Notes: a model not told the origin generated them from the sequence alone. 64,000 nucleotides of DNA from Patescibacteria group bacterium (GCA_040384485.1 JAZKJH010000003.1:144979-208978), one strand, 5' to 3'. Shown: positions 1,990 through 52,045, counted from the stretch's first letter. Made by a program: numbers and translations.

Positions 1990-1990
1990 G

Positions 1991-2632
1991 TTAATTTGTT
2001 TTAATTGGCTTTTCTGTGTCCCCAGGATTGAAGAGTTTATAGAATAATTCTATCACCTCTTCTGTCCCGAGTCGTATAACTCGTATTCCACAACGAGATA
2101 GACCCTGCTCAACTACTGCTACTCTCTGTTCCAACTGAGTCCGGTTTTCTTCAAAGTTTGCTCGTTTGTTTTCCGCTTCCTCCGAACTACTTTTCTTTTT
2201 TAACATACTAAAAGGGCTACCACCCTTTTTTACATTTACAATAGCTGGGTCATATGAAACCACAACAAAAAAACTTTTTGTCATTATGTTGGTTGACTCA
2301 GTAAACTTCTTGACGAATTCTATGTATTCCCTGGTTTGGATTTTCATCAGCTCATTCATTTGTTCTTTGTAACGGTCCTCAAGTAGGGCTATGTAAGGCC
2401 GTATATCCAGTCGTCGTGACTCAACTACTATTTGGATAGGAAAATCTAGAGAGTTGAGAAAATCCTGATATTGCATAATAATCGCATTTCTTTCATCCTC
2501 AGATTTCAAGCTAAAGTTCAAAGATGATGCGAGCACCACCCCACGCATTGAACCATCTTTTAAAACAACTACGCCATCGCGCACTTCTTTTATTGGAACA
2601 AAGTCTTGAGTTGCTTTGGAGGTTACTGGCAT
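1991..2632 (-). CDS. VirB4 N-terminal-domain-like protein (separate ORF, 1-nt gap to the ATPase ORF)
   Basis: 213-aa ORF beginning MPVTSKATQDFVPIKEVRDGVVVLKDGSMRGVV, which resembles the N-terminus of Gram-positive-type VirB4/TraC proteins. Its TAA stop, one C, then the ATG of the ATPase ORF (TAAcATG); the two ORFs are in different frames. Confidence 0.5.
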   Translation of the reverse strand: MPVTSKATQDFVPIKEVRDGVVVLKDGSMRGVVLASSLNFSLKSEDERNAIIMQYQDFLNSLDFPIQIVVESRRLDIRPYIALLEDRYKEQMNELMKIQTREYIEFVKKFTESTNIMTKSFFVVVSYDPAIVNVKKGGSPFSMLKKKSSSEEAENKRANFEENRTQLEQRVAVVEQGLSRCGIRVIRLGTEEVIELFYKLFNPGDTEKPIKTN

Positions 2633-2699
2633 GTTTTTATTATAACACAGTAAAAATTTCTACTTCCTGATTTATAAACAAAAATTCAATTTAAAGTCT

Positions 2700-3134
2700 T
2701 TATTTAGTGGTTTTTCCACCATCCTTTGTTAGTGGGTTAAGGTTTTCGTTTATATCCAATGACCATGAAAGCTCTTTTAATTTACTATCAGAAAGTCTAG
2801 GAACGTAAACTTGGCTGTAGTTCTCCTCCACTTTTTTTACAGTTTCAATTTTTTTCTCCTGTTTTTTCCAAATATATAAGTTATTTTTAGTATAAAAAGT
2901 AAAAGCTGACTCTAGAAAGTCTATAAAAGGCTTGTTGTTTATCCTGTAGAATGCCAATGCTAGTGATAACGGAGCTATTATAGCGACAAGGATGATTGCT
3001 ATAAACAAAGGAAAAAAAGAATACATAATAAATGACATACCTGCTCCACCAACTAAGTACACAAACTGTTTTACAGTTAGTGGTCCTATCACCTTATCTT
3101 CTATTTCTATAAATTGTGGGACTTGGTATCGCAT
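2700..3134 (-). CDS. PrgI/VirB3-like small membrane protein
   Basis: 144 aa; the N-terminus MRYQVPQFIEIEDKVIGPLTVKQFVYLVGGAGMSF matches the PrgI-family pattern and is followed by two TM helices; sits directly upstream of the VirB4-like genes. Confidence 0.55.
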   Translation of the reverse strand: MRYQVPQFIEIEDKVIGPLTVKQFVYLVGGAGMSFIMYSFFPLFIAIILVAIIAPLSLALAFYRINNKPFIDFLESAFTFYTKNNLYIWKKQEKKIETVKKVEENYSQVYVPRLSDSKLKELSWSLDINENLNPLTKDGGKTTK

Positions 3135-3146
3135 TTTTTCAAATAT

Positions 3147-4145
3147 TTATTCTAATGGTTCTCTGTATGGATCCACGGCATAGCTATGGGTCGGCTTCAC
3201 AGTTTCAGCAACTTGTTTCTGTATTATAGCAGGATTTTCTATAGATTTTGTTTGTATAGGTGGAGTAGTTGTGTTTTTTGCTACTAGGTCTGGAGTAGTT
3301 TTTGGCAAAGGAACAGCTTCAGGACCAGCAGCAGGAATAACTTCATCATCGATATCTTTTGGTGCAGTAAATCTTGGAACAGGAACCGGCTGTTCTACTT
3401 TTTCTTCAATAAAATCTTTTGGTTTATAGTGAATACGATTTTCGGATGTCTTAGGTGCCTCTTGCAGTATTTTGCTTGAAGCGCTAACCATATTCTTCTC
3501 CACAAAAACAGGAGGAGTTGTTTTTTGTGGCACAAACCTTGGTGCATGATGTTTTGGTGCTACAGATACTTTTGGCTCAAGAATTTTTACACTCTCCCCC
3601 TTTTCCACCATGGGCATAATATTTGGCCTTATTTCTGGGATAGATGTAACTGGTTTTGTAATTTGAGTATGAAGTGGGGGTTTTTGTTGCTGCAGCTGTG
3701 TAGTAGGTTTTGGAGTGTTTGTTTGAGCTATGTCAGGCCTTTCAGCTACGGGACTCACCTGCTCAGTTTTTAGAAGTGGTGAGGGTTTTGAGTCCTCGCT
3801 TTCTTGGGGGGTAGGCGTTTCTGTTTTTGATGTTTTTCTTTCTACAGATTTTACGGCATATTCGAATACCCGTATTTCCAAGTCTTCAACAATCTGTTCA
3901 GATAAAAGTTTAGATATGCCTAACTCTGAAGGCATTAGTTTTATAAAATTTTCACCTTCGTCTATACCAATAAGCACAAACAGAACATTATCTGCCAGCG
4001 TTTCTGTTTGAGTGGGATTTAACGAATATTTTTTAGCGATACTCTCCGTTCTTTCTCTCCAAGATCCTTCAAAGATAAAATCCTGAACTGGTTTTGGCAG
4101 TTTTTGGAGGTAATCCGGCATGTTTTTTAGTGTTGTTTCATCCAT
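3147..4145 (-). CDS. Hypothetical protein with a ~100-aa N-terminal domain and a long Pro/Thr/Lys/Gln-rich, probably disordered, tail
   Basis: 332-aa ORF; low-complexity PT-rich C-terminal two thirds; tightly packed between the PrgI-like and VirB6-like genes (gaps of 9-13 nt). Confidence 0.5.
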   Translation of the reverse strand: MDETTLKNMPDYLQKLPKPVQDFIFEGSWRERTESIAKKYSLNPTQTETLADNVLFVLIGIDEGENFIKLMPSELGISKLLSEQIVEDLEIRVFEYAVKSVERKTSKTETPTPQESEDSKPSPLLKTEQVSPVAERPDIAQTNTPKPTTQLQQQKPPLHTQITKPVTSIPEIRPNIMPMVEKGESVKILEPKVSVAPKHHAPRFVPQKTTPPVFVEKNMVSASSKILQEAPKTSENRIHYKPKDFIEEKVEQPVPVPRFTAPKDIDDEVIPAAGPEAVPLPKTTPDLVAKNTTTPPIQTKSIENPAIIQKQVAETVKPTHSYAVDPYREPLE

Positions 4146-4153
4146 GTTGTATT

Positions 4154-6397
4154 TTAAGCAGTTGGTGTTGCAGGAGGGGTTTCTTTTGGTGCTGCAGCTT
4201 CTTCAGCTTTTGGCTTATCTGCATCAGACTCCTTAGCTTCTTCCTCTACTCTCTTCTTGGCCGCCTTCATGAGTTCTTCCATTGCTTTTTCTTCCTTACT
4301 CTTTCCTTGGAGAGCCTTTTTTGCAGCACTTGCAATTGCCCTTCTTTCACTCTGGTTTATTGGTGAGTTTGTAAGACCGGTTAATCCACCAATAAATTGA
4401 GCTGTACCCATAATACGTCCAGGATTAAGAGTTCTCTTTTCAACGGCTTCGACTCTATCAGTAAATACTTTCTTAAGCCTTGCAGCTTCAGATTTGTAGT
4501 TAGTTGCTTTGTTTTCCTCCGCCTTTTTAACAGCAGTCTCTGCGAGGGCAATATTTTCTCGCAATGTTTGCAAGCTATCTCTTTGTGACTTATTCCTGTT
4601 TTCTATTTGTTCTATTTGGTCTGCTATCTGCCTTCTCTCATCAGAATTTGTTGTTGATTGAAGGTTCATCCTCAACTCCTCTATTCTCGTCTCCCCTTCT
4701 TTTATAGATTTAGTTGCTGCTTTATTTTCTTCTTCCGCTTTCTTTTTTGCAGCCTCAGCAGCAGAGATTTCTGCATCAAATTTAGCCACTTCCACTTTGT
4801 CAGCGGCCTCCGCTTCCGCCTGCATATCCTCATTAGGTTTATATTTCTTAGCTGCTTCTTCAGCATCCTTTTTCTCCTTCTCCGCGATTGCCTTGAAGTT
4901 TAATTTCTTAGCGTCAGGAGCTTTGCCCATATCAACACCTGTTTGACTTATCAACGAAGACATTCCTGCTGAAGCTCTACCATCAAATGTGGCTGTTCTA
5001 GCTCTTTCTCCCCTATTCACTGTTATTTTCGCTAAGTTCCTTCCAACCAAACCTCCTGTTGCAGCTTTATCTTTCAAGTAATCACTGTTCGCTATCGCGT
5101 TACCTGCCCTTCCTATAGTGTTTCTACCAAGCGCTGCTGCACCTCCAAACACAGCTCCCCCAGCCAACTTACTTAATCGGCCAGTTGCTTGTCCAATAAG
5201 TTTTGAACCTTGGGTTGCAGAAGTTTTTGCCGTAATAAGGGTAAATATCGCTAAACCAATAATAATAGTGAAGTTAAAGAATAGAGATAGGAGGGACTGA
5301 GTTCCTATTGCCGCAGGACCTTGGGAAGCTCTAATAAAACCGTCACTAGAAAGCAGAGTAAGGACCACCCAGGTCATAAGCATAAACACTGGAGGAAAAA
5401 TGAGTTGTCCTTTCAAAGAGTCCCACCACTGGTTTGAGTAAGTTTTTATTGCTGGCAAGGCCATACCCATTATCGCAACAGGTGAAAGCATTAGTAATAC
5501 CAACAAAGTTACGTAACGGATTATAAAAAATATTGATATTGCAAAAAATACAAAAGAAGTAACTATAAACAGTATTGCACCCATAAGTTGTCCTACAAAC
5601 ACCTCCGGACCTGTACCGGCCACAGCAGCAAAAGTTTCACCTGAGTATATTTTATTCAAATCAAGTGCTTTCATGTACGCCACCGATAAACCAGAGATCG
5701 CCTCTCTGCTAGTATCACCCCCACCAGGTACAGAGAGTCTATCAGTTTCGTCCAATATGGCATTGTATAAGCCAATAGTTACTGCATTTGATGCGTCTAT
5801 CATAACTTTAGTGAAGAATAGTGAAAAGTTTACTAAGAGGGATGCAAGAACAAGAAAGCCCACAAACTTTTTCACATAATCTGTGCTAATCTGACCGATA
5901 ATCATCTGTATTCCATGCCAAACAAGCATGAATATAAAGACAATGTTTATCATGTCACGGATCAGTTTCCAGCCGGTATTTATACCTTCGAATTGATTAA
6001 TGCTGGTGGACATATCCATGATGGTTATATCCAAAACCATGTTCAATAAGCTTCCTGCCAGCCACAATATTCCAGAAGTTATACCAAGGATAAGTACACC
6101 AATACTTTCCAAGAAACAACCAAAAATCCATGTGGAAGGGCGGTAAAAAGTACAACCATCGCTAGGACCAGGCTGATTTGCCGCTCTCACCTCATTAACA
6201 GCTTCATCCGATCCGTCTTCGTCAAGTATGCATACCCAATTTGGGCCATCCAGGTCTCCATAGTTTACATATTTTCCAGGCTTGCCACCCTCGCCAGTAC
6301 AAGCCTGGCCGTTTACCTGGGCTAAGGAACTAGTAAAAGGAAAAAGTATTCCCGAAAAAACTATTCCTATAAAAATGTAACTGAAAAACTTTTTCAT
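4154..6397 (-). CDS. VirB6/TrbL-like polytopic membrane protein with a long C-terminal coiled-coil / KA-rich tail
   Basis: 747 aa; N-terminal signal/TM, then ~8 hydrophobic helices in the first ~430 aa, then an Ala/Lys/Glu-rich coiled-coil region. This architecture and its position next to a VirB4-like gene match VirB6-type channel subunits. Confidence 0.55.
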   Translation of the reverse strand: MKKFFSYIFIGIVFSGILFPFTSSLAQVNGQACTGEGGKPGKYVNYGDLDGPNWVCILDEDGSDEAVNEVRAANQPGPSDGCTFYRPSTWIFGCFLESIGVLILGITSGILWLAGSLLNMVLDITIMDMSTSINQFEGINTGWKLIRDMINIVFIFMLVWHGIQMIIGQISTDYVKKFVGFLVLASLLVNFSLFFTKVMIDASNAVTIGLYNAILDETDRLSVPGGGDTSREAISGLSVAYMKALDLNKIYSGETFAAVAGTGPEVFVGQLMGAILFIVTSFVFFAISIFFIIRYVTLLVLLMLSPVAIMGMALPAIKTYSNQWWDSLKGQLIFPPVFMLMTWVVLTLLSSDGFIRASQGPAAIGTQSLLSLFFNFTIIIGLAIFTLITAKTSATQGSKLIGQATGRLSKLAGGAVFGGAAALGRNTIGRAGNAIANSDYLKDKAATGGLVGRNLAKITVNRGERARTATFDGRASAGMSSLISQTGVDMGKAPDAKKLNFKAIAEKEKKDAEEAAKKYKPNEDMQAEAEAADKVEVAKFDAEISAAEAAKKKAEEENKAATKSIKEGETRIEELRMNLQSTTNSDERRQIADQIEQIENRNKSQRDSLQTLRENIALAETAVKKAEENKATNYKSEAARLKKVFTDRVEAVEKRTLNPGRIMGTAQFIGGLTGLTNSPINQSERRAIASAAKKALQGKSKEEKAMEELMKAAKKRVEEEAKESDADKPKAEEAAAPKETPPATPTA

Positions 6398-6400
6398 TTA

Positions 6401-9400
6401 TTATTTTTTACTAAAAGTTGCAACTCTCACTGTTGGGTTCCATGTGGCTACAGCATAATTTCCAGCACCATCTGTGGCTGCGTGAGGGGTGTGTGTTCTC
6501 TGATTCTCCCACAAGTTAAATTCTGATGACAGTGAGTTGTTGAATCTACCCACTACGCCATTATCGTCATGCGGTGTCACATCCGCTGCTACAGTTAAGT
6601 CCCCTGCATACCAAGAATTAAGTCCCCATGTTAATGCAGTTCTATCTGTATCAATCATTGTTACCACACCAGTAGACGATATTCTAGCTATTCCTGTTGG
6701 TAACCAATTTCGTATAAAAGTAGAAGACCCTCCAGTGAGTAGTCTTCTGTATACTTTGCTATCTGTACAGTTTGTACCTTCACATTTTTGCCATGCAATG
6801 TAGCCGTTCCCTACAGCCACTGGGTCATTGCCTACTGCAGGGCCAAGAGACTCTATTGAGTCAGTGCTTTTTTTCCATAACTTTATGTCTTCGCCGGATG
6901 ACTCCCCATCTCTAAATGCCAACCATAATGTGTTGCTACTGACTGTAAGTCTAGGGAATCCCCCAGCACCGGAATTTAGAGTAAATATTTTTTCTGTTTT
7001 TTGGTCACCGAGGTTTTTATCAAAACTAAAAAGATTAATAGCTAGATTGTTTGCACTTCGAAACGCGACATATAGTCTGTTTTGAAACCAAACAACATCA
7101 GGAAAAGAACCTACTCCCAAATCTTTATAATTTGGAGTTGAAATAGTTTGTGTCGATGCAACTGCGTTTCCTAGATTAGGAGCAAACCTTGTTATTCCAT
7201 ACTCGTAAGCTGATGTTGCAGAAAATGTTCCATCCGTGGTGTTGGCAGCTATGGTTGGCGAGAAGTTGCCGTAACCTCCTGCAAAAGCCACACCTTCAGA
7301 AACTTTTACTCCATTAGAGTTAAGTATTACAAAGGTATTTCCTGCATTGTGTGGGTTTTGCCCGATAGACGCGTACTGGTTGGACTTTGGGTTGTAAGCA
7401 AGGCTGTGCCCAGACGCTGCAGAGTTTAGGGTAATTGTCGAACCAGCCACACTACCATTACAACTAGTCATAAACTTCCCTTTTGCCCCGTTTGTTCCAG
7501 ACCAACCAACCAAGTATTTATTATTAACTGAGTTATATACAATACTCATCATTACCACAGTAGCGTTTGCTCCGGACTCTGAATACACTACAGTTTCTGG
7601 ACCAACTGTTCCTGTCAATGCATTGACAGTCCGTGCTCTGATAGAAGGGTTCCATGTAGCCGATGCTCCCGTGCCGGTGCTGTATCCTCTTTGGTATATA
7701 ACGCAGTATTCGTTCGTGCTCTCCTTTATTGCAACAGCAGGATCTCCTCTTCCATCGTCTTCAGCTACAGTAGAAAGAGAGCTTGTTAGGTTTATTCTCG
7801 GACCAACTTCTCCAGTCGTACTTATTGTTCTTAAATTAGAATGTCGTCCTGGTTTTACTGTCTGCCATACGTATACAAATTTTTTATTTTTTGAGTCGTA
7901 CTGCATAGGCGAGTTTGAATAAAACATTGAGGAGTCGTTTGGATAGCTAGTGTCAGAATGGACCAAGAAAGGACTACCAGAAAATGTTCCATCAGGGTTA
8001 ATAAAACGCCCCATAATATTTGAAGTTGTGGTTTTGTCACCATCATCCCAAGCTAACCAAACAACTAAATATTTGTTTATATCTTTTGAGTAAGCTACTT
8101 TTGGTCCTCCGGAATGCCCGCTTGTAATTGTTATTTGTCCCCCAACAGATGTTCCATCGTTGTTCATTATTTTCCCATATGTTCCGTTGGCAGATGTTCC
8201 TGCACTAACTACCAACCAGGTATTGTTGGTAGTGTTGTGTGCCAAGTTTCCACCCCAACCACCACTCGCGTTATATGAAGGAACAGTTGCTGTACCTCCC
8301 CCGCCACCACCAGGAGTGTTGGTTATCTGAATTAATTTACCATTCGAGAAAACCATTTCATTGGCAGGATTTCTTCCGATGTAAACTTTTACTGTTGCAT
8401 TTCCTACAGGAATACTGGTTGGAACTAAAGCAGTTGTTTGAGTTTTTGTGGAATTTACTGTTCCTGCAACAGACTCTCTGTTACCAGCACCATCAAAAAA
8501 CGAAACCTGATTTGTTAAGTCTGTTCCCGTTATTGTGATAGTTGTAGCTCCGGGTTTTGCAGACGAAGGCGAAACAGAGGTAATAAAAGCAGTTCCAGGG
8601 TTTGGATTGGTTTCCTCATCATCCCCACCATCTTCATCTTCTTCATCTGGTCCACCGGTACTTTCTCTACATCCACAATCATCCCCTCCACCTGCAGTAG
8701 TACAATCCATAGGAACAAATCCTTCAAAGTTTGTTTGACCCGCAGTCGCTATGGTCGCAGCTGCACCATTGATAGCGTCATACCTTTCCATGTATTCTTC
8801 TCCATCCCTCCATACAGCAATGATATCTCCCGTGGAAGGGTTATTGTTTCCATTCAGTACTTCGTCTGTGGCATTGAATCCTCTAGAAATAAGTTTTTCT
8901 TCTACAAGAGCTAGAAATCTTCTGGCATTCACTCTGCCACCCGATTCTATGTTTGGAAGGTCTGCTATGTCAGGATTTTCAGAAAGAACGGCATCCATAG
9001 CTGAACCCAAATCAGAGGCATACTTGTTTCCTGTGTCAGCACATTGACCGCCCGATGTACCAGGAACTTCATTCCCTATCCTACATCGCATAACACCAGT
9101 GTCGGGGTCAGTAAGACAAGTGAAAGTGTCCTCAGGATCGTTGACAGGCATTCTAATTGGTTGAGGTTCAGGGGCGTTTTGGAAGTCATCAATAAAGGAG
9201 TTTCCAGTCGAACCTGGTTGGCTCGTTCCTCGAAGTCCTCCTCCGTTTCCACTACCACCTACAACTCGTTCTATTAGTTGTCCAACTAACGCCCCTACAA
9301 TTTCTGTTATTTCATCGGCTGCTCCAAGTCTTTCCCAAGAAGAACCTAAACTTTTAGTAAGTTGCCCGTTGATTACTGATCCAGGAGTAACAACCTCTTT

Positions 9401-10144
9401 GGCATTAGGATCTTTATAACAATCACCCACTTCGTATCCAGCTGACAATAAATTTCCATAGTAACCTCGACTATTGTCATCCCCATCGAGCATTGCTTGA
9501 GTGATTACATACTCCTTTTTACATTTCTGAAACGACAAGAAACCACCACCCTGTTCTATTTGTTTATCTTTTTCTTCACCAGCCGCACTTACTCTCAATG
9601 ATAGTGAATTTTTTGCATCAAGATATGCCCCATAAGGGTTATTTTGACTTTTTTGAGTAATCTCAAACCACCCATCCCAACCACCCTTACTAAAGTCGTT
9701 CATAAACTCTTCGTAGTTGGCTTTTATTTTACTCAAACTACAGCTGTAATTTTCGCCACTTGTTTCTGAAAGATAATTTTTAACCAAAGCAAGTCTAACT
9801 TCTGCTTTGAAAGGAGCACACAACCGGTTTAGATTTGTATTGGATAGAAAAGAAGATGCTGTCTCATCCCCAACGTCCAAGAAAAATTGTTTTGGATCAG
9901 TTACATAACTAGGGTTTCCTTGGAATCCGGAGTTAATCCAATTTACTGTTTTTGCAGTAATCATTTTAAGGACTATTTGAGCAGCTGTGTATGCCAAAAA
10001 GTCACCAAAACCTTCTTTTGGAGCCTGAAACACATCGACATATTGAGCTTCAACCTTCTTCGGAGCAAAAGAAAAAAGCAGTGAGATTATAAAAAAAGAA
10101 AGTAGGGATTTTTTCCAAAAGTTTGATTGGGCGGAAAAAGACAT
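6401..10144 (-). CDS. Giant secreted protein (1247 aa): Cys-containing N-terminal domain, acidic Gly/Asp/Glu linker, IPT/TIG-like Ig domain, then beta-propeller-like repeats; candidate surface adhesin of the T4SS-like locus
   Basis: N-terminal signal peptide (LLSFFIISLLFSFAPKKVEAQ). TIG-like segment AFITSVSPSSAKPGATTITITGTDL. Repeated blade-like motifs (KYLVVWLAWDDGD, KFVYVWQTVKPG, KYLVGWSGTNG, LWLAFRDGE). Only 3 nt separate it from the VirB6-like gene. Confidence 0.7.
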   Translation of the reverse strand: MSFSAQSNFWKKSLLSFFIISLLFSFAPKKVEAQYVDVFQAPKEGFGDFLAYTAAQIVLKMITAKTVNWINSGFQGNPSYVTDPKQFFLDVGDETASSFLSNTNLNRLCAPFKAEVRLALVKNYLSETSGENYSCSLSKIKANYEEFMNDFSKGGWDGWFEITQKSQNNPYGAYLDAKNSLSLRVSAAGEEKDKQIEQGGGFLSFQKCKKEYVITQAMLDGDDNSRGYYGNLLSAGYEVGDCYKDPNAKEVVTPGSVINGQLTKSLGSSWERLGAADEITEIVGALVGQLIERVVGGSGNGGGLRGTSQPGSTGNSFIDDFQNAPEPQPIRMPVNDPEDTFTCLTDPDTGVMRCRIGNEVPGTSGGQCADTGNKYASDLGSAMDAVLSENPDIADLPNIESGGRVNARRFLALVEEKLISRGFNATDEVLNGNNNPSTGDIIAVWRDGEEYMERYDAINGAAATIATAGQTNFEGFVPMDCTTAGGGDDCGCRESTGGPDEEDEDGGDDEETNPNPGTAFITSVSPSSAKPGATTITITGTDLTNQVSFFDGAGNRESVAGTVNSTKTQTTALVPTSIPVGNATVKVYIGRNPANEMVFSNGKLIQITNTPGGGGGGTATVPSYNASGGWGGNLAHNTTNNTWLVVSAGTSANGTYGKIMNNDGTSVGGQITITSGHSGGPKVAYSKDINKYLVVWLAWDDGDKTTTSNIMGRFINPDGTFSGSPFLVHSDTSYPNDSSMFYSNSPMQYDSKNKKFVYVWQTVKPGRHSNLRTISTTGEVGPRINLTSSLSTVAEDDGRGDPAVAIKESTNEYCVIYQRGYSTGTGASATWNPSIRARTVNALTGTVGPETVVYSESGANATVVMMSIVYNSVNNKYLVGWSGTNGAKGKFMTSCNGSVAGSTITLNSAASGHSLAYNPKSNQYASIGQNPHNAGNTFVILNSNGVKVSEGVAFAGGYGNFSPTIAANTTDGTFSATSAYEYGITRFAPNLGNAVASTQTISTPNYKDLGVGSFPDVVWFQNRLYVAFRSANNLAINLFSFDKNLGDQKTEKIFTLNSGAGGFPRLTVSSNTLWLAFRDGESSGEDIKLWKKSTDSIESLGPAVGNDPVAVGNGYIAWQKCEGTNCTDSKVYRRLLTGGSSTFIRNWLPTGIARISSTGVVTMIDTDRTALTWGLNSWYAGDLTVAADVTPHDDNGVVGRFNNSLSSEFNLWENQRTHTPHAATDGAGNYAVATWNPTVRVATFSKK

Positions 10145-10225
10145 AATTATGTCTTTTATTATACACCAACTCGACTTGTTAACACTAGAGTTTGTGTTGA
10201 AAAGTTTTACTGAAACAAACGGTTG

Positions 10226-11050
10226 TTATATTGCTGAACCAGTTCGTTGTGCAAAGTAAGAATTTATGTCTAATAGTGCAAAGTTTAGATCTTCGCTTGT
10301 AGTGTTTTGATAGTGGTTTATTCCAGCTATTCCTGCTATTGGGTCGGAAACAGAGTCCCGCATAGCTTCAAGACTGGCGAGAATATTGCTGATGGCATTT
10401 AATAGTTTTAAATGATGCGAAGTTGCACTACTAGGCACTTCTATAGCCAACATGTCTTCAATAAAACCCTTAGTTATCCTAATTGTAGGGTCTAGTTTTA
10501 ATAAAACAGACTCATTTTCGGTCTCGATGGCAGTCATGGCGATATCTACTGGATTTTCTTTAACCTGGGTTGAGCTTTCTCTAAGAAGTCTGTTGACTGT
10601 GTTTTTGTAGCTAGTTACAAAATCTCGGTTGTTTTTGTTTACTATGTTTAAGTTTGCTTGGAGGTACACCGCCCCTTTTATCTGAGTATACTCAGGCATG
10701 GAGACAATATTTTTGGTTATTTGAGAAATCTCAGCGTCAGTGATAGTTCCATCGTCTCTAATAGATAAAAAGTACTGTGATAAAAAATCTTGAGATATTT
10801 TTGCAGTAAGGCTAGTGTCGTTAACAATTTCTTCGTCTACAGGTCTTACTACGCTTGATATTTCGTTTTGAGAAGAATCTACATCCGTTAGTATTTTTTG
10901 CCAGTCATTTTCAGTTTCTACAACAGCTCTGGGGTTTCCCGCAACCACTTGATTGTCTCCCTCGGTATTTTTTTCCTTTGTAAAAAGCCAAATACACGCA
11001 ACTATACTGGCTGAGATTATAAAAATTACAATAGTTTTATTACTAGGCAT
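10226..11050 (-). CDS. Bitopic membrane protein (N-terminal TM plus ~250-aa extracytoplasmic domain); possible T4SS accessory component of VirB8-like topology
   Basis: 274 aa with a single N-terminal hydrophobic helix (IVIFIISASIVACIWLF); first gene upstream of the giant protein on the same strand. Confidence 0.45.
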   Translation of the reverse strand: MPSNKTIVIFIISASIVACIWLFTKEKNTEGDNQVVAGNPRAVVETENDWQKILTDVDSSQNEISSVVRPVDEEIVNDTSLTAKISQDFLSQYFLSIRDDGTITDAEISQITKNIVSMPEYTQIKGAVYLQANLNIVNKNNRDFVTSYKNTVNRLLRESSTQVKENPVDIAMTAIETENESVLLKLDPTIRITKGFIEDMLAIEVPSSATSHHLKLLNAISNILASLEAMRDSVSDPIAGIAGINHYQNTTSEDLNFALLDINSYFAQRTGSAI

Positions 11051-23330: not shown

Positions 23331-23720
23331 GTGTACAAATTGAATGTGTTGGGTCTTTTGAAGTCGAATATCGAAGCGGTACGTCACAAGGCTGCTCAGT
23401 GGGCCAAGTCAGCCCCTATCGAGGAGGTACTGAAGCATGTGCCTGGTGCGGTGTTCGGTCAGACCGTCGGACCGACCGAGGTGGATCAGAAGCAAAGGGC
23501 AAAACGGATTCTGACCAAGATCCGCGCCCGCGTAAGCGAAGTTGACGCCAAGCGCATCCGGACTGAACTGCAAGGGCTCAAGCCGAAAACGGAGGCCTAC
23601 AGCGAAAAACGCGACTCTTTATCCCGATCTCTGGGGTACACTCGTCGTCAGGTAGGTGCAGCTGCAACAGGTATTGAAAGGGCAGCTAAACGCAAAAAGG
23701 CTCAGCCGAAAAAGAAATAG
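23331..23720 (+). CDS. Hypothetical basic, helical protein (129 aa) encoded by the highest-GC stretch of the window; first gene of the putative integrated element
   Basis: GTG start 9 nt after GGGAGG; Lys/Arg-rich C-terminus (AAKRKKAQPKKK); GC content visibly much higher than flanking DNA. Confidence 0.4.
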   Translation: MYKLNVLGLLKSNIEAVRHKAAQWAKSAPIEEVLKHVPGAVFGQTVGPTEVDQKQRAKRILTKIRARVSEVDAKRIRTELQGLKPKTEAYSEKRDSLSRSLGYTRRQVGAAATGIERAAKRKKAQPKKK

Positions 23721-23816
23721 TTCGAACCAATACAAAGGTACCGCAAGGTACCTTTTCTTTATATATCAACACAAAGGGAATAGTGTCGCACAATATTATG
23801 TTACAATTTATACATA

Positions 23817-24794: not shown

Positions 24795-24844
24795 TATTGA
24801 CATATCAGTTTTTTAGTGTATTATCCAGAAAGGAGTAAATACAA

Positions 24845-25096
24845 ATGAGTGTTGTTCGTATGCATCGTGGTCGTGTTGTAAAAACACGACAAGTCATTAA
24901 CTTGAAACTACCAGGAACCTTCGGCGCTTTCACTGCTGATGACCTTGGGTGTGAGTTTGTAACTCAAGGTGTCAGAAACAAGTTGGTTCAGAACAGAGAC
25001 CAGCTTGCTGGACATGTTCTGGAAGGAAAAGATAAGGGCCGCTCCTTTATTTACCAACCACAACTGAAAGTATCCAATATCGTTCGGGAACCTTGA
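24845..25096 (+). CDS. Small cold-shock-domain-like / OB-fold protein (83 aa), divergent
   Basis: GRVVKT...GTFGAFTADDLGCEFVTQGV...LAGHVLEGKDKG parallels the CspA layout (GxVKWFN..GFGFI..DDG..VFVH...L.EGQ.V); followed by a terminator. Confidence 0.35.
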   Translation: MSVVRMHRGRVVKTRQVINLKLPGTFGAFTADDLGCEFVTQGVRNKLVQNRDQLAGHVLEGKDKGRSFIYQPQLKVSNIVREP

Positions 25097-25102
25097 ATAC
25101 TA

Positions 25103-25125
25103 CCTCGCATAAGCGAGGTTTTTTA
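25103..25125 (+). terminator. Rho-independent terminator
   Basis: CCTCGCATAAGCGAGGtttttt. Confidence 0.7.
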
Positions 25126-25196: not shown

Positions 25197-25493
25197 ATGG
25201 GTTCAAGTGCAAGTTCGAGCGCGTTGCTGGGAAAAGGCCTTCAGGGTCGAGTGGTAGTCACGAAACCTCGTGGCACTGAGGGCACATTTGGGTATTTCAT
25301 ATTCCCGATCGATCTCGGAGCAAGGTTTCGATACAACGGTGTTTTGTTTCAAGTTGTTCATTTGCCCGGCGATGGGCGGGACACTATCGGGGCTCTCTGT
25401 CTCGAGGGTTCCGAAGCAAATTATGTACACCGGTTTACCGACACTGTGTCGATTACGGATGTTGCCCTGCATCATCCATTGAAACCACGATAG
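25197..25493 (+). CDS. Second small CSD-like / OB-fold protein (98 aa), a divergent paralog of the previous ORF
   Basis: GRVVVTKPRGTEGTFGYFIFPIDLGARFRYNGVLFQVVHLPGDG shares the same GTFG-centred layout; followed by a terminator. Confidence 0.35.
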   Translation: MGSSASSSALLGKGLQGRVVVTKPRGTEGTFGYFIFPIDLGARFRYNGVLFQVVHLPGDGRDTIGALCLEGSEANYVHRFTDTVSITDVALHHPLKPR

Positions 25494-25500
25494 AAGATAT

Positions 25501-25526
25501 CCGCCCCTCCGGGCGGATTTTATTTT
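25501..25526 (+). terminator. Rho-independent terminator
   Basis: CCGCCCCTCCGGGCGG followed by ATTTTATTTT. Confidence 0.7.
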
Positions 25527-25640
25527 GACAAAAGGTGTTATTCATTGACTTTGTGTATAAGTAATGTAGAGTAAAAAGGGAATGTAATTTGACTTTGGTT
25601 GTTTAAAACAACCGTTTAAATGGCTATCTAAGGAGGGTTT

Positions 25641-26291
25641 GTGGTAAAAGGAAAGCGAAGCCTGATTCCAGCCGTCATCACTCAAAGCAGGACCGAACTT
25701 GTACCTGGGAATGTACGAGTTAAGTCCATTGCTTTTAAGCTCCGATGGAGTGTGTACACCGTGATCAAAAGGGTGGAAAGCTCGCTGACTTCCAAGGTGG
25801 AGCAGGAAGTCTACCTCTTGATTGCCGGTGGTTATAGGATTCAGCCCGAATCCCTCCTGAAAATGCTTAAAGTTTTTAGAGGAGAGGATGGTTTGCGCCC
25901 TTGCGATCAGGAATATAACCAGGTCGGAAAGAACTTGTTTAAAAGCAAGTTTGACGATGTGGTTGAAAAAGTTGAACAGGCTCTTGTTCTGGTGGATAAA
26001 AGTTCTGATTCTGCTGACTACATGATGAGTATGGAGTCAGCTGCTCAACTGGTTGAGGCTTATGGTGGCCACTCAGAAGAAATTCTCGGAGAAATTGTGG
26101 AGAATCTGGCTGATGTGGCTAAATTGCTCAGAATCAAATCTGAAACACCACGAGTTATCGTGGGTGTGGCGATTAAGGTTTTGGTAAAGAAAATAACCGA
26201 CAGCTCTCAGGGGTCAACATTGCCTATGACGATTGAAGAAATGTTCAGTAGTCGAGGAAAGGAAGTAAAGAATAGAGGCTTCCGTGAGTGA
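25641..26291 (+). CDS. Hypothetical protein (216 aa), first gene of a two-gene module; its end overlaps the next gene by 8 nt
   Basis: Higher-GC ORF with no recognisable motif; translationally coupled to the J-domain protein gene. Confidence 0.5.
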   Translation: MVKGKRSLIPAVITQSRTELVPGNVRVKSIAFKLRWSVYTVIKRVESSLTSKVEQEVYLLIAGGYRIQPESLLKMLKVFRGEDGLRPCDQEYNQVGKNLFKSKFDDVVEKVEQALVLVDKSSDSADYMMSMESAAQLVEAYGGHSEEILGEIVENLADVAKLLRIKSETPRVIVGVAIKVLVKKITDSSQGSTLPMTIEEMFSSRGKEVKNRGFRE

Positions 26292-27447
26292 AACTTCCAG
26301 AAATCTAAGAAAGCGAATGGTTAATGAGTTTCCAAACGGGAACCCATTAGCTTTGATTGGTGTAGCAACTCAAGTGTTGGATTTGGGACTTACTGCTGAT
26401 GAGTTGTTTGACTACATCGTAAAAGATGTAGCCCGTCGACTCGTTATGAAGTTTCACCCAGACAGGTCCGTTCCTGAAAGCCAAACAGTAGACACTGAAC
26501 TTCAAAGGAAGTATTCAGAGGCTTACGAGCTTTTGAAAAACAGAACTACCTTTGACAGGGCTATGGCCGAGTTCAGAGCCTTGAGGTCCGAAGAGCGAAA
26601 CGAGACAAAACACTTGCGTCGAGCACTCGAAGATGCGCGAAAGAAGATTGAGCGCATCAGCTCAAAAGACAAGGAGTTGCTTTCGAGAGAGAGAAAACTC
26701 AGTGTCGATACCAGCAAGTTGGCCGAAGCTCGTGAGATTTTTTCCAAAGAGCAGCATGAGCAAAGCTTGATTGTTCCAAAACTTGAGAATCATATCGAAA
26801 GCATGAGTGATCGATATGAAAAAGCTCGGCTAGCATCCTCGTACCACAGAAAACTATTTGATGGACTTCATCGATACTTTTCCTATCTTGGCGACATAAA
26901 AGGCAGTCTCGGCACTCATGTTTTGGATGCAAGATGGGTGATGGTCGCTGTTTTACTTCCAAAGTTCAAGGCGAACAAAGTAATAAAGCCTGAGGACGAA
27001 GGAAAGTGGACGGAAGAATTCCTCAAATCTGTTGGGCACTTAGAGATTCCAGTGGAGACGCTGGAACAGGTTCTTGAGAGATGGATACAGATGCAGAAAA
27101 GTTTCTATAGTTTTCCAAACTTAGAAGCTACAAAATACCTGCATCCTAGACTGTGTGTAATGGAACTTTCTGGCGCAAAACCCAGACCGATCCTTGGACT
27201 AGATCATCCTGGCCCTGTCGGGCGGATTATTGGGTCAATACCCAATTCGCTGGAGCAGTTCGATTTGCTCAGTTTGAAGAATTTGGTTCCAAGAACGACT
27301 ATGTTCGAGGAAACCATACCGTTTGTAGTTGAGGGAGGACTTCTCGTTTCAACTATGTTTCTGAAAACTAGCAAATTTCATGCTAACGACCCTGGTGAAG
27401 CCCATTTTGCGAGAGAGACTCGCAGGCTCATCCTGGGAGTTGGATAG
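26284..27447 (+). CDS. J-domain (DnaJ-like, HPD motif) protein with a coiled-coil middle and a ~200-aa C-terminal domain of unknown function
   Basis: Residues ~35-95, DELFDYIVKDVARRLVMKFHPDRSVPESQ...RKYSEAYELLKNRTTFDRA, match helices II-IV of a J domain including the HPD tripeptide. Confidence 0.6.
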   Translation: MSETSRNLRKRMVNEFPNGNPLALIGVATQVLDLGLTADELFDYIVKDVARRLVMKFHPDRSVPESQTVDTELQRKYSEAYELLKNRTTFDRAMAEFRALRSEERNETKHLRRALEDARKKIERISSKDKELLSRERKLSVDTSKLAEAREIFSKEQHEQSLIVPKLENHIESMSDRYEKARLASSYHRKLFDGLHRYFSYLGDIKGSLGTHVLDARWVMVAVLLPKFKANKVIKPEDEGKWTEEFLKSVGHLEIPVETLEQVLERWIQMQKSFYSFPNLEATKYLHPRLCVMELSGAKPRPILGLDHPGPVGRIIGSIPNSLEQFDLLSLKNLVPRTTMFEETIPFVVEGGLLVSTMFLKTSKFHANDPGEAHFARETRRLILGVG

Positions 27448-27551
27448 TGGAATATAAAATATACACCGAATCGCATGGTCCTAATACGACTATCCGATTC
27501 GGTTTTTTTGTATTATCACTTTGGATTACCATTTGGTACAATTCTATTTAT

Positions 27552-28358
27552 ATGAAAATCATCAGTTGGAATTTAAACGGCATTCGTGCAGTACACAAAA
27601 AAGGTCTTTTTAACGAATTTATAGACAAACACAAGCCAGATATTGTTTGTTTTCAAGAAACAAAAGCCCAGGAGGAACAAAGTGAGGTTGATTTGCCAGA
27701 CTACACTGAGTATTGGAACTCCGCGGTGAAAAAAGGCTACAGTGGAACAGCCATTTTCCATAACAACAAAAACGGCCCCCTACCAATTTCCATAACTAAA
27801 GATTTTCCAGAGAAAATAGTAAAAAAATACAAACTAGAAGATAAGTATGGCGACCCGAACACAGAGGGTCGTGTGATAACTGCAGAATACGAAGATTTTT
27901 ATTTAGTCACTGTATATACTCCGAATGCCAAAGACGACTTGTCGCGAATCCCCCTACGACACCTTGGTTGGGATCCAGCTTTTCTAGAACATGTGCAAGA
28001 GTTAGATAAACACAAACCAGTTATTTTCTGCGGAGACTTAAACGTTGCCCATACTGAAGACGATCTTGCTCGACCGAAAGACAATGTTGGTAAAAAAGGT
28101 TTTACTGCTGAAGAGCGAGAAGGAATCCAGAAATTTATTGATGCAGGTTTTGTAGATACCTTTCGGATATTTAGGGAAGGCAACGGGCACTACACCTGGT
28201 GGAGTCATTTTGCTAACGCTCGCGAGCGCAATGTCGGCTGGAGAATAGACTACTTTTTTGTAAGTAAAAGAATAAAAAATAAAGTAAAAAAAGCAGAAAT
28301 ACTCCCAGAGGTTTTAGGTTCAGATCATTGCCCGGTAGTTATAGAGATAGATTTGTAA
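27552..28358 (+). CDS. xth: Exodeoxyribonuclease III (ExoIII/Xth AP endonuclease)
   Basis: MKIISWNLNGIRA start, FQETK, catalytic GDLNVAH and SDHCPV motifs; the annotated longer ORF (from 27447) probably has an N-terminal over-extension. Confidence 0.9.
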   Translation: MKIISWNLNGIRAVHKKGLFNEFIDKHKPDIVCFQETKAQEEQSEVDLPDYTEYWNSAVKKGYSGTAIFHNNKNGPLPISITKDFPEKIVKKYKLEDKYGDPNTEGRVITAEYEDFYLVTVYTPNAKDDLSRIPLRHLGWDPAFLEHVQELDKHKPVIFCGDLNVAHTEDDLARPKDNVGKKGFTAEEREGIQKFIDAGFVDTFRIFREGNGHYTWWSHFANARERNVGWRIDYFFVSKRIKNKVKKAEILPEVLGSDHCPVVIEIDL

Positions 28359-47564: not shown

Positions 47565-49319
47565 ATGCACATCGAAGAATCACAATTAAAAGATTTTATA
47601 TTGGACTCCGGGCTTGTTTCTCGTGCTGATTTAGACGCAGCAACAAAAGAAGCAAAAGAAAGTGGTAAAACTCTTGGCAAGGTGTTGGTAGCAAACGGTA
47701 AGCTGACTGATGACGGGTTGCGTCGTATGCAAGCTTATACAATAGGCATTCCTTTTGTTGATATAAAGAACGAAAAAATTCCTTTTGAAGTTCTCTCACT
47801 TATTCCAGAGCCGATTGCACGAAACCATAATATTATTGCATTCAAAAAAACCGATACAGCACTCGAGGTAGCGATGTTAGACACAGAGGACCTTACAGCG
47901 ATTGATTTTATAAAAAAGAAAGTTGGGCTAAAAATACTCCCACGACTTACAGACAGTGAGTCCATGAAGGTGGCCATACTTCAGTATCAAAAAAGTTTGA
48001 AAGCTGAGTTCGGGGATTTGATTCAAGAAGATACAAAAGCATTGCAAAGTATCCCTGAAGATGGGAAGGAAGGGGACATTTCTGGAGATGATTTAAAAAA
48101 GCTGGCTGACGATGTTCCTGTTGTTCGTATCGTAGACACACTTTTGAAACATGCCATTTTGCAAAATGCATCTGACATCCACATTGAACCCCAAGAAAAA
48201 GAATTACTTGTTCGATATAGACTAGATGGAATGCTTCATGATGCCATGGTTCTTCCAAAAAACATGGCTGCAAGTATCGTGGCTCGTATAAAAGTTTTAT
48301 CTAGCTTGAAGCTTGATGAAAAACGCCTTCCACAAGACGGACGTTTCAAAATAGATTCAAACGGAGAAAAAGTTTCTTTCCGTGTATCCACTCTTCCAAC
48401 TTATTATGGAGAAAAAATAGTTATGCGTCTTTTGCGAGAGAACGTTTCAGGGTTTACTCTCGAGCACCTGGGTTTTCATGGCGATGGACTAGAGAGAATC
48501 CACAAAGCAGTAAAGTCTACTACGGGGATGATACTTACTACTGGACCTACTGGTTCAGGTAAAACAACTACCTTGTATACTATTTTAGATATTCTAAACA
48601 CGCCAGATGTAAACATATCTACTATCGAGGATCCAATAGAATACCAGATGAAAAGAATAAATCAGACCCAAGTTCGACCTGAGATTGGTTTCACTTTTTC
48701 TTCTGGACTTCGAACTCTAGTTCGACAAGACCCGGATGTGATAATGGTGGGGGAGATTCGAGACGGTGAGACCGCGTCACTTGCCATCAACGCTTCTCTT
48801 ACCGGGCACGTCGTGCTTTCTACTCTCCACACCAACTCTGCTGCGGGAGCTATTCCTAGACTTATTGATATGAAAGTAGAACCTTTTTTGTTGGTGTCTA
48901 CTATAAACGTAATAATCGGACAGAGACTTGTTAGAAAACTAAATGATCAAAAAGAAAAGTATTTTCTAACAAAGGCTGAAGTTGAGACTTTGGGTAAGTC
49001 AGTTAACCTAGAGAAGGTTCTGTCTGCATTAAAAGAAGAAAAAGTGGTGGGTAAAAGCGATAAGTGGGAAGAAGTTCCTTTTTGGAGACTAAAAAAAGAC
49101 GTAGCTGATGAACAGGGTTTTGCTGGACGAGTCGGCATTCACGAGATTCTTAAAGTAACCCCGACTATAAAAGAAGTTATTCTAAAGTCGGGAACAACAG
49201 ATGAAATACAAAAACAAGCTGAAGCAGAGGGAATGCTAACGATGATCGAGGACGGGATTTTCAAGGCGGTTCTCGGAGTGACCACCATAGAGGAGGTGTT
49301 AAGAGTGGTGTCTGAATAA
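47565..49319 (+). CDS. pilB: Type IV pilus assembly ATPase PilB (GspE family)
   Basis: N-terminal GspII_E_N-like domain, Walker A GPTGSGKTT, Asp box, Walker B (MVGEIRD), His box; 584 aa. Confidence 0.9.
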   Translation: MHIEESQLKDFILDSGLVSRADLDAATKEAKESGKTLGKVLVANGKLTDDGLRRMQAYTIGIPFVDIKNEKIPFEVLSLIPEPIARNHNIIAFKKTDTALEVAMLDTEDLTAIDFIKKKVGLKILPRLTDSESMKVAILQYQKSLKAEFGDLIQEDTKALQSIPEDGKEGDISGDDLKKLADDVPVVRIVDTLLKHAILQNASDIHIEPQEKELLVRYRLDGMLHDAMVLPKNMAASIVARIKVLSSLKLDEKRLPQDGRFKIDSNGEKVSFRVSTLPTYYGEKIVMRLLRENVSGFTLEHLGFHGDGLERIHKAVKSTTGMILTTGPTGSGKTTTLYTILDILNTPDVNISTIEDPIEYQMKRINQTQVRPEIGFTFSSGLRTLVRQDPDVIMVGEIRDGETASLAINASLTGHVVLSTLHTNSAAGAIPRLIDMKVEPFLLVSTINVIIGQRLVRKLNDQKEKYFLTKAEVETLGKSVNLEKVLSALKEEKVVGKSDKWEEVPFWRLKKDVADEQGFAGRVGIHEILKVTPTIKEVILKSGTTDEIQKQAEAEGMLTMIEDGIFKAVLGVTTIEEVLRVVSE

Positions 49320-49354
49320 TTCCCACTTCATTTTATATCTTAAATTTCTAATAC

Positions 49355-50572
49355 ATGCCTTTATTTCACTATCAACTAATCGATCAAAAAGGTATCCGTT
49401 CAGAGGGTACCATGGAAGCGAGTGATAAGTTTGCTTTGTATAACATTATAAAAAAGGACGGAATTACCATAATAGGAGCAGAAGAATTGATGCACAAAAG
49501 CACGATGGAGGTCTTGAATAATCTTCCTATTTTTAACAGTGTAAAACTTCACGACAAGATTTTGTTTGCTAGAAACCTTTCTAAGATGTTAGATGCAGGG
49601 CTACCGATGACTCGAGCCTTAGCTATCATGCAAAGGGAAGCAAAAGGCGAGCTGAAGAAAGTTCTGACGAAACTAGAGGATTCACTTTCTAAAGGAGTTA
49701 GCTTGAGTGAAGGTATGAAACAGCACCCAAAAGTTTTCTCAACCTTGTTTATTTCGATGGTAAAAGCAGGAGAGGAGTCAGGCAATCTCTCTATTTCTTT
49801 GCAAAACGTTTCCCTGCAGATGGAAAAAAGTTATCAATTAAACAAAAAAATCAAAGGAGCTCTGATGTATCCGGCAGTTATTATTTGTCTTATGGTGGCT
49901 ATCGGAGTACTTATGATGATATATATGGTTCCAACTCTTACCGCTACTTTTACCAGTCTAAAAGTTGAGCTTCCTTTGGCTACCAGACTGATTATAGGCA
50001 CAAGTAATTTTCTAGTTAATTATTCGTTGTTGGTTTTAGTGGGAGTTGTGGCCTTAGGCTTTTCAGTTATGTATTCCATACGAACCACAAAAGGCCAAAG
50101 GTTTATGGATTGGTTTTTGCTCAAACTTCCTATTGTGGGAGACATGGTGAAACAAATTAACTCCGCTAGAACCGGAAGAACAATGTCATCCCTGGTGTCA
50201 TCGGGAGTAGATATTGTGGTTGCACTAGGAGTTACAAAAGATGTTTTGCAAAACTCATATTACAAAGAAGTGTTGGGGGAGGTCCAAAACACTATTCAAA
50301 AAGGAGCAACTATTTCTTCCGTACTTTCAAAACACGGCAACTTGTACCCGGTGTTTGTATCTGAAATGGCAGCTGTAGGAGAGGAAACAGGAAAAATAGG
50401 TGACATGCTACTCAGCGTGGCTTTATTCTATGAAGAAGAAATAGATCAAAAGACAAAGGATATGTCTTCGGTTATAGAACCTTTCCTCATGGTATTTATA
50501 GGCCTTGCTGTAGGGTTCTTCGCCATATCTATTATTAGTCCTATATACTCTATAGGAGACTCTATTGGATAA
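49355..50572 (+). CDS. pilC: Type IV pilus inner-membrane platform protein PilC (GspF family)
   Basis: Two GspF repeats, three TM segments, 405 aa. Confidence 0.9.
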   Translation: MPLFHYQLIDQKGIRSEGTMEASDKFALYNIIKKDGITIIGAEELMHKSTMEVLNNLPIFNSVKLHDKILFARNLSKMLDAGLPMTRALAIMQREAKGELKKVLTKLEDSLSKGVSLSEGMKQHPKVFSTLFISMVKAGEESGNLSISLQNVSLQMEKSYQLNKKIKGALMYPAVIICLMVAIGVLMMIYMVPTLTATFTSLKVELPLATRLIIGTSNFLVNYSLLVLVGVVALGFSVMYSIRTTKGQRFMDWFLLKLPIVGDMVKQINSARTGRTMSSLVSSGVDIVVALGVTKDVLQNSYYKEVLGEVQNTIQKGATISSVLSKHGNLYPVFVSEMAAVGEETGKIGDMLLSVALFYEEEIDQKTKDMSSVIEPFLMVFIGLAVGFFAISIISPIYSIGDSIG

Positions 50573-51053
50573 AATGAAATACTTTATAAACAAAAAAGAA
50601 AAAACCTCTGGCTTCAGTCTCATGGAAGTTCTGGTAGTGCTGGGTGTTCTGGCACTAGTTGTCAGTATTGTTTTTTCCGGTTTCAATAGTTTCAGTAAAA
50701 CAAAATCAGTTGGAAGTGATGCTGAAACAATAGTAGAGATTCTTCGACAAGCTCGCAACGAAACCATAGCTTCTAAAAATTCGTCAGCATATGGAGTACA
50801 TTTTAGTGGTAACACCATGACTATTTTTGTCGGACCTACCTATAGTGCTGGAGCAGCAACAAATAGGGTAATAAGTTTGCCTTCCAACAACACCTCACTC
50901 ACACTTTCTCTTACTGGTGGAGTTTCGTATGTTCTGTTTGCAAAAATTTCTGGAGAAACAAATCAAAACGGAACGATCACAGTATCTTCTTCTGGTGTTA
51001 CTGGAACAAAAACTGTTACAATATACAAAACAGGAATTGTAGAGATGAATTAA
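50565..51053 (+). CDS. Type IV pilin / pseudopilin (prepilin-type N-terminal cleavage/methylation domain)
   Basis: KTSG|FSLMEVLVVLGVLALV: Gly at -1, Glu at +5, hydrophobic helix. Confidence 0.75.
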   Translation: MDKMKYFINKKEKTSGFSLMEVLVVLGVLALVVSIVFSGFNSFSKTKSVGSDAETIVEILRQARNETIASKNSSAYGVHFSGNTMTIFVGPTYSAGAATNRVISLPSNNTSLTLSLTGGVSYVLFAKISGETNQNGTITVSSSGVTGTKTVTIYKTGIVEMN

Positions 51054-51059
51054 TTTTTT

Positions 51060-51524
51060 ATGATAAATAAAAAAGCAGGTCTAGCACTTGCAGAAATAAT
51101 TATCGGAGCCTCTATTATGTCGATAGCAATACTCGCAGTTAGTTCTGTGTATGCTAGGTATGTTGATTATGCCTTATCCAACGATGAGAATGTCGTGGCT
51201 TCGTATGTACTGGAGGAGGGGGTGGAGGTTATGACTTTTTTTAGGGATGTTAGCTGGTTAAATATTGGGAACCTTAGTACAACTACAACATACTATCTGA
51301 CCTTTTCTGGAAATTCTTGGGCTACCAGTACAACTCCACAATATGTAGATGGAAAAATTTTGAGGAGAGTTAACTTGGAAGATGTTAGGAGAGATATTAA
51401 TGATGATATTGCCGTCGCTGGAACCGTTGACTCTAATATCAAAAAAATCACAGTCACGGTGGAGTACTTTCAGGGGCATGCCACAACAACCAAATCACTT
51501 TCAACTTATTTAACAAATATATAA
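51060..51524 (+). CDS. Pilin-like protein (prepilin-type N-terminus)
   Basis: KKAG|LALAEIIIGASIMSIAIL with Glu at +5. Confidence 0.6.
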   Translation: MINKKAGLALAEIIIGASIMSIAILAVSSVYARYVDYALSNDENVVASYVLEEGVEVMTFFRDVSWLNIGNLSTTTTYYLTFSGNSWATSTTPQYVDGKILRRVNLEDVRRDINDDIAVAGTVDSNIKKITVTVEYFQGHATTTKSLSTYLTNI

Positions 51525-51525
51525 T

Positions 51526-52029: not shown

Positions 52030-52045
52030 ATTTTATATATTTATC

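Follow-up and report, generated by a model that had tools for sequence, protein, structure and literature searches.

A pair of overlapping genes in a 64,000-nucleotide stretch of DNA from a Patescibacteria metagenome-assembled genome (the window, from whose first letter positions are counted) appears to encode a specialised J-domain protein (JDP) together with its dedicated partner. ORF1 (25641..26291, plus strand; 216 amino acids (aa), GTG start) encodes the all-helical partner, and directly downstream of it ORF2 (26284..27447, plus strand; 387 aa, GTG start) encodes a class C JDP; the two are listed at NCBI as V4690_02970 and V4690_02975. J-domain proteins decide the substrates of Hsp70, and to our knowledge few specialised bacterial J-proteins are understood, namely HscB, DjlA, CbpA/CbpM, AtcJ and the phage protein Rki. 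We lean, if only moderately, towards the explanation that the pair is a module of a specialised (class C) JDP and its partner that acts through DnaK. The comparisons are best read as pointing to a new family of specialised co-chaperone, which would be accessory and horizontally exchanged rather than part of core housekeeping. What we regard as new here is a family of JDPs that has an obligate partner, itself of unknown fold, and is common to Patescibacteria and phages.

The J-domain of ORF2 (26365..26568, plus strand; aa ~28-95) carries much of this argument. The sequence-only reading had picked out a J-domain core in the protein, and the motif ARRLVMKFHPDRS...SEAYELLKN...FDRA is present, with the His-Pro-Asp (HPD) tripeptide at residues 58-60 (nucleotides (nt) 26455-26463). 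The Pfam DnaJ profile scored the single ORF2 sequence at 18.5 bits (E 0.002), against a gathering score of 27.8 bits, over profile positions 18-56 of 63, which cover helix II, HPD and helix III. Profiles built from the family reached solved J-domains where the single sequence stayed below threshold: J-domains ranked top in a PDB search with an 11-sequence family profile, and a 46-sequence profile of the N-terminal 105 residues gave 55 PDB matches, about 50 of them to J-domains and the best to E. coli DnaJ (E 1.6e-5). The AlphaFold2 (AF2) model has helices in this part of ORF2 at residues 29-34 (helix I), 38-56 (helix II), 64-84 (helix III) and from 87 onward, where helix IV starts, with a moderate predicted local distance difference test score (pLDDT 60-73) for the J-domain. 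In a Foldseek search of this model against BFVD the best match was a viral J-domain protein (probability 0.97), and the matching was confined to the J-domain. Counted back from HPD, the sequence QVLDLGL (aa 30-36) is the counterpart of the canonical helix I motif YEILGV, and the J-domain is therefore complete; by this alignment the sub-threshold Pfam score appears to be a sign of divergence, not of truncation.

Conservation within the family bears on whether the domain engages Hsp70 or is only J-like. HPD is kept in the window protein and in 113 of 149 aligned family representatives (76%), and nearly all the others have HSD, HTD or HED, with S, T or E in place of the proline in 31. Such replacements, together with the sub-threshold Pfam score, the atypical helix I and the presence of an N-terminal extension, could indicate a pseudo-J-domain of the kind known from Pam16, a regulator of Pam18 whose HPD is mutated (reviewed in PMC13254874); it would offer ORF1 a scaffold or a surface for interaction and would not engage Hsp70. 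We regard this as very improbable: the H and D of the tripeptide (HxD) are conserved at about 97% among the 149 representatives, implying selection on exactly the residues that contact Hsp70, and, on the basic face of helices II and III, residues equivalent to the DnaK-contacting R22, K26, R27 and K48 of DnaJ (PMC8215388) are present in ORF2 as K47, R51, R52 and R75, while DnaJ K51 corresponds to S78. From these alignments and profiles we conclude that the window protein has a real J-domain, which is probably functional.

Outside the J-domain, ORF2 does not resemble any J-protein of known type. A family-specific N-terminal extension (26284..26364, plus strand; aa 1-27) contains a helix at residues 3-15 and ends in an invariant NPLxxIG motif, in which N20, P21, L22 and G26 are conserved at 98-100% in the family; nowhere is the protein better conserved than over residues 21-40 (mean identity 0.76). 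The J-domain runs into a segment (26542..26892, plus strand; aa 87-203) that AF2 models as a single helix with pLDDT of about 90, 117 residues and about 17 nm long. Its 3.5-residue, heptad-type hydrophobic periodicity was equalled in none of 2000 shuffles and 41% of its residues are charged, indicating that it is a long coiled coil; there are also weak matches to the coiled-coil families CALCOCO1, ATG17-like and SMC. The remainder of the protein is a C-terminal alpha/beta domain (26911..27444, plus strand; aa ~210-387) with the motifs DAxWV, PRL, GRxIGS, PFLxxGGLLV and ILGxG, for which we found no relative in sequence or fold. Its conserved residues are mainly structural (W218, W267, G305, G317 and the GRxIGS motif), and conservation analysis revealed no catalytic-looking constellation. 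Searches of ORF2 against Pfam, NCBIfam, PADLOC and PHROGs gave only the sub-threshold DnaJ match and coiled-coil noise, and ten variant J-proteins yielded no known domain. ORF2 has no match to DnaJ_C or DnaJ_CXXCXGXG, no Gly/Phe-rich (G/F) region and no zinc finger, with a single cysteine in the whole protein, and it is therefore a class C JDP; nor has it a hydrophobic segment, or a match to HSCB_C or any other Pfam or NCBIfam family above threshold, and its J-domain is N-terminal. It thus fails all tests for DnaJ, CbpA, DjlA and HscB, and the sequence-only description of a protein distinct from DnaJ, CbpA and DjlA, with neither G/F nor zinc-finger regions and with a long coiled coil and a novel C-terminal domain, was borne out in each of these respects. 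All-versus-all BLAST had divided the C-terminal domains into subtypes, suggesting swapped modules; this was ruled out by hhalign, which detected remote homology between the subtypes at 86-96% probability. From this profile-profile homology it follows that the whole ORF2 architecture is ancestral, and that the C-terminal domain is fast-evolving, not swapped.

The second main line of evidence is the constant association of the two genes. An exhaustive profile search over 1.84 billion representatives, with family clusters defined at 50% identity, recovered 181 J-protein clusters at E <= 1e-3, 51 of these at E <= 1e-30; word-indexed searches returned 10 relatives of ORF1, 51-61% identical to the window protein in the family alignment, and 4-11 relatives of ORF2. 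We examined 12 independent genomic contexts, which cover the close clade as well as distant subtypes and the phage-like contigs. In all 12 the next gene upstream of the J-protein is a homologue of ORF1 (hhalign probability 99-100%), and the two genes overlap or abut (-8 to 0 nt) in 11. In the window the overlap is 8 nt (GTGAGTGA), with the GTG of ORF2 at 26284 lying inside the 3' end of ORF1. Pairwise distances for ORF1 and for the N-terminal region of the J-protein are correlated (r = 0.84), and ORF1 has co-diverged with its neighbour. The earlier proposal of an unknown gene translationally coupled to the J-protein is confirmed in its coordinates and its overlap; the pairing recurs in every context in which co-occurrence was checked, usually with translational coupling. 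That neither gene belongs to a described family also agrees with our database searches and with the literature, in which we found no published description of the ORF1/ORF2 family.

Little can be read from ORF1 itself. It gave no match in Pfam, NCBIfam, PADLOC or PHROGs, profiles of its family found nothing significant among PDB sequences, and it has no similarity to CbpM or MerR. Residues 20-51 resemble a sigma-r4/LuxR helix-turn-helix at the level of pattern, with a weak hhalign probability of 17%.

Comparison with known J-protein systems helps to place the pair. Class C JDPs act as targeting factors, and the pairings of CbpA with its modulator CbpM in one operon and of Pam18 with Pam16, as well as phage-encoded class C JDPs such as Rki, are all established (PMC13254874, PMC8215388). 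Like E. coli DjlA, DjlB/DjlC and HscB, and AtcJ of Shewanella, ORF2 has only the J-domain in common with DnaJ, the rest being a specialised targeting region, and the family likewise coexists with canonical DnaK and DnaJ (in the genome of locus L022). DjlA and DjlC have a transmembrane segment (in DjlA at the N-terminus, with the J-domain C-terminal) and HscB a C-terminal three-helix bundle (HSCB_C), whereas ORF2 has neither and carries its J-domain at the N-terminus; its own extension, 117-residue coiled coil, unmatched alpha/beta domain and obligate upstream partner gene set it apart from the known members of the class. The CbpA-CbpM system of gamma-proteobacteria also encodes a J-protein and a specific partner in one operon, and CbpM, a J-domain-binding protein that gates access to DnaK, offers a plausible model for ORF1. 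However, CbpA belongs to class B, with a G/F region and C-terminal domains that bind substrate, and CbpM is small, MerR-like and encoded downstream, unlike the upstream, 216-aa ORF1. Pam18(Tim14)-Pam16(Tim16) is similar in that a J-protein has a dedicated partner and some members have a degenerate HPD. For Pam18 and Pam16 a stable complex is known; ORF1, in contrast, is not J-like, and the ORF1/ORF2 proteins are bacterial, cytosolic and without a membrane anchor. The likeness to both systems is in logic only, not in sequence or fold. Rki of phage RB43 (PMC3486835) shares with ORF2 an N-terminal J-domain on an otherwise orphan protein, phage-encoded relatives and a presumed redirection of host DnaK, but beyond the J-domain the two have no sequence relationship and ORF2 has no PHROG match. 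Rki acts alone, on sigma32, whereas the ORF1/ORF2 family is always paired and mostly chromosomal. In a catalogue of phage class C JDPs nearly all lack a recognisable second domain, and Rki alone has been characterised (PMC13254874).

On the explanation we favour, ORF2 would dimerise through its coiled coil, and its J-domain would dock on host DnaK (Hsp70) and trigger ATP hydrolysis. ORF1, presumably made in a fixed ratio with ORF2, would bind it. It could be a dedicated client or adaptor for remodelling by DnaK, with precedents in the replication initiators RepA, RepE and RctB and in the lambda O-P-DnaB complex (PMC8215388), or else a CbpM-like gate on the J-domain (cf. PMC13254874). The fast-evolving C-terminal domain would give specificity for a target or site. 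In this way the module would turn the general Hsp70 machinery towards one particular task. DnaK and a canonical zinc-finger DnaJ are encoded about 7 kb from the pair in one carrier genome (L022, 1-2513), and the gene pair thus appears to be accessory to a canonical DnaK/DnaJ system with which it coexists in at least this genome. In another (L002, 9932-10438) GrpE is no more than about 7-8 kb away from the cassette; given small genomes, the proximity of Hsp70-system genes in these two cases may be due to chance.

Several considerations weigh against this explanation. The single-sequence Pfam score is under the gathering threshold and AF2 models the J-domain with no more than moderate confidence, and with 36 of the 149 representatives lacking HPD, some members may have weakened or pseudo-J-domains. 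The proposed contact between ORF1 and ORF2 is argued from gene order, coupling and co-divergence, and shared inheritance alone could give the same result. The searches gave no functional clue to either ORF1 or the C-terminal domain of ORF2, and DnaK of the source genome is not among the genes of the 64-kb window. The interest of the family is that it forms a defined two-component system, a J-protein with an invariant partner, which occurs both in Patescibacteria, ultra-small and with reduced genomes, and in the replication modules of phages. The role of the partner, whether client, adaptor or gate, would once worked out reveal a new use of DnaK, and the family could explain why reduced genomes keep an extra co-chaperone.

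The cassette is found at many different sites on the chromosomes of Patescibacteria-like genomes, and two of the contexts are metagenomic, phage-like contigs of high GC content. One (L018, 1-10817; 66% GC) carries the cassette with a replication initiator, a resolvase, an HNH gene, TerS and TerL, and the other (L024, 1-5863; 60% GC) with an exonuclease and a D5-type primase/helicase; in each the cassette is placed within or at the end of a DNA replication/recombination module. Their ORF1 copies are 43-46% identical to ORF1 of the window clade, and in the trees of both genes the phage-contig copies are sister to that clade. Remodelling of a replication or DNA-bound complex is an attractive role for the module because the phage copies sit in replication modules, but we offer such a role as speculation. 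The TerL of L018 is itself closest (48%) to TerL of Burkholderia phage BgVeeders33.

These contigs also raise the prospect that the pair is a phage-host conflict module, either a phage-derived DnaK hijacker that was kept or domesticated in chromosomes, or a defence, abortive-infection or addiction module with DnaK as its sensor or effector. We consider this possible, though doubtful. Besides the placement of the phage copies and their position in the two gene trees, a very fast divergence at a syntenic locus is suggestive: in two related genomes (L001 and L008) that both have the order trmD-pair-rpoB, identity is 87% for RpoB, 82% for PrfA and 76% for TrmD, compared to 56% for ORF1 and 31% for the J-protein. 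The same synteny, on the other hand, indicates vertical retention. The chromosomal neighbourhood of the pair is otherwise not conserved, the GC content of the pair is raised, and a bacterial NLR-related protein has been described that senses phage in a DnaJ-dependent manner (PMC12169576). The occurrence of the family is rare and scattered, with 181 clusters among 1.8 billion representatives, and peptide-pattern scans of GTDB representative genomes for either family confirmed no relative, although such narrow patterns exclude close relatives only. Against the conflict module, scans of IMG/VR with the same narrow patterns confirmed no relative either, and tblastn with window ORF1, ORF2 and the phage-contig ORF1 homologues found no match in 50,697 isolate phage genomes or in PLSDB plasmids. 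PADLOC gave only noise-level coiled-coil matches for the pair (E > 0.008) and PHROG none, no toxin, nuclease or other effector-like domain was found, nor any conserved catalytic constellation, and the flanks are housekeeping genes rather than defence islands. The idea of a phage-style chaperone hijacker, raised from the sequence alone, thus gains from the two contigs that carry the cassette, and loses from the lack of a PADLOC or PHROG match. The fuller form of the conjecture, an unrecognised, horizontally exchanged Hsp70-recruiting module of Patescibacteria and of phages of unrelated high-GC hosts that acts in phage-host conflict, seems to us rather unlikely. Were it true, a phage might commandeer DnaK for the remodelling of replication complexes, or engagement of DnaK might trigger or effect cell immunity; an arms race would then lie behind the rapid divergence, and Hsp70 recruitment would join the known repertoire of phage-host warfare. 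A gene of the bAvd / 23S-rRNA-IVP family lies between khpA and trmD in L008 (4132-4503), in a genome with a highly divergent allele of the cassette. Genes of this kind are often components of diversity-generating retroelements; the L008 fragment shows no reverse transcriptase.

The genomic setting of the pair speaks against cargo of a mobile island, as which it had been described in the sequence-only reading. The recombinase upstream is of the XerD/XerC/XerA type (225-236 bits), a repeat search found no convincing att-like flanking repeats around 23.3-27.5 kb, and a tRNA scan found no tRNA adjoining the pair, the nearest being 3.5 kb away. The 64-kb window is ordinary Patescibacteria chromosome, with genes for KsgA, UvrD, ComM, NYN, Xth, CCA-adding enzyme and RNase Y, as well as TIM, PGK, RecJ, RNase H, ComEC and type IV pilus proteins. 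Association with integrases or defence islands did not emerge in other genomes either: the chromosomal contexts are without integrases, and the pair is flanked by housekeeping genes, lying at trmD/rpoB (L001, L008), alaS/infA (L002) and ftsW-murG/mraY-scpAB (L014), and beside aminoacyl-tRNA synthetases (L019). The sole positive sign of an island is a modest rise in GC content and in GC at third codon positions (GC3) above those of the neighbours (GC 0.45 compared to 0.39). In two other loci a 99-aa ORF about 300 nt upstream of the cassette (L022, 8723-9022; L023, 2077-2376) resembles only the N-terminal SAM-like domain of an Xer-type recombinase; these ORFs echo the Xer gene upstream in the window, which could be coincidence or remnant synteny.

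With such core genes for neighbours, its own promoter-like site and terminator, and an architecture conserved throughout the family, the pair could instead be a lineage-specific Patescibacteria housekeeping factor, for example in the assembly of large complexes, cell division or envelope biogenesis, that annotation has missed and that phages captured incidentally. We find this improbable. No neighbour gene stays the same from lineage to lineage, the family is small when set against the diversity of Patescibacteria, and the pair is atypical in composition and evolves far faster than the core genes that flank it; moreover, contigs of 60-66% GC are unlikely to derive from phages of Patescibacteria hosts. 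Changing neighbours, raised GC, fast divergence and phage-like copies together argue against a core housekeeping role, and in this respect are in line with the accessory co-chaperone module that we favour.

The gene starts and transcription signals are consistent with a compact operon. A Shine-Dalgarno sequence, AGGAGG (25631..25636, plus strand), can be read 4-5 nt before the GTG of ORF1 at 25641, and homologues of ORF1 align from about residue 20 on, so the long, 216-aa form is correct. The NCBI annotation of V4690_02970 instead gives 172 aa starting at V45; it drops 44 residues (25641-25772 in the window) and with them the family-conserved N24, R26, A31, W36 and R44. The N-terminus of ORF2, MSETSRNLRK, matches MSETSRxLRR of its homologues, confirming both its start and the 8-nt overlap. 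A consensus scan found a sigma-70-like promoter candidate, TTGACT-16-TAGAGT (25545..25572, plus strand), which with 9 of 12 matches is weak evidence alone; it sits just past the terminator (25499-25518) of a preceding small ORF. Downstream, 18 nt past the ORF2 stop, begins a strong intrinsic terminator (27465..27509, plus strand), whose hairpin has an energy of -24.1 kcal/mol (z -5.1) and is followed by U7. The promoter-like site and the terminator indicate that the pair is a self-contained two-gene transcription unit, and Rfam and tRNA scans gave no match within or beside it. The ORF for Xth (exonuclease III), listed from a GTG at 27447 (27447-28358, plus strand), almost certainly starts at an ATG near 27555 (MKIISWNLNG); its listed 5' extension contains the ORF2 terminator, and its Pfam match starts at residue 39.

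Between xer and ORF1 lie two small plus-strand ORFs (24845-25096, 83 aa; 25197-25493, 98 aa), each with its own promoter-like site (at 24797-24824 with 11 of 12 matches) and its own intrinsic terminator (25102-25119 and 25499-25518). They are paralogous to each other, with 29% identity across 77 aa (pairwise E 3e-5) and a common GTFGxF...DLGxxF motif. Neither matches any family, and the other loci lack both. Further upstream, a 129-aa, Lys/Arg-rich ORF (23331-23720, plus strand) has 54% GC, compared to 39% for the genome, its own terminator at 23734-23755 and no family match; together with the two small ORFs and the J-protein cassette it makes up a stretch of about 4 kb of raised GC. Elsewhere in the window are a cluster with a VirB4-like ATPase and very large surface proteins of 1247 and 747 aa (175-11050, minus strand) and a set of type IV pilus genes including PilB and PilC (47565-53824, plus strand), both of which are typical of Patescibacteria episymbionts.

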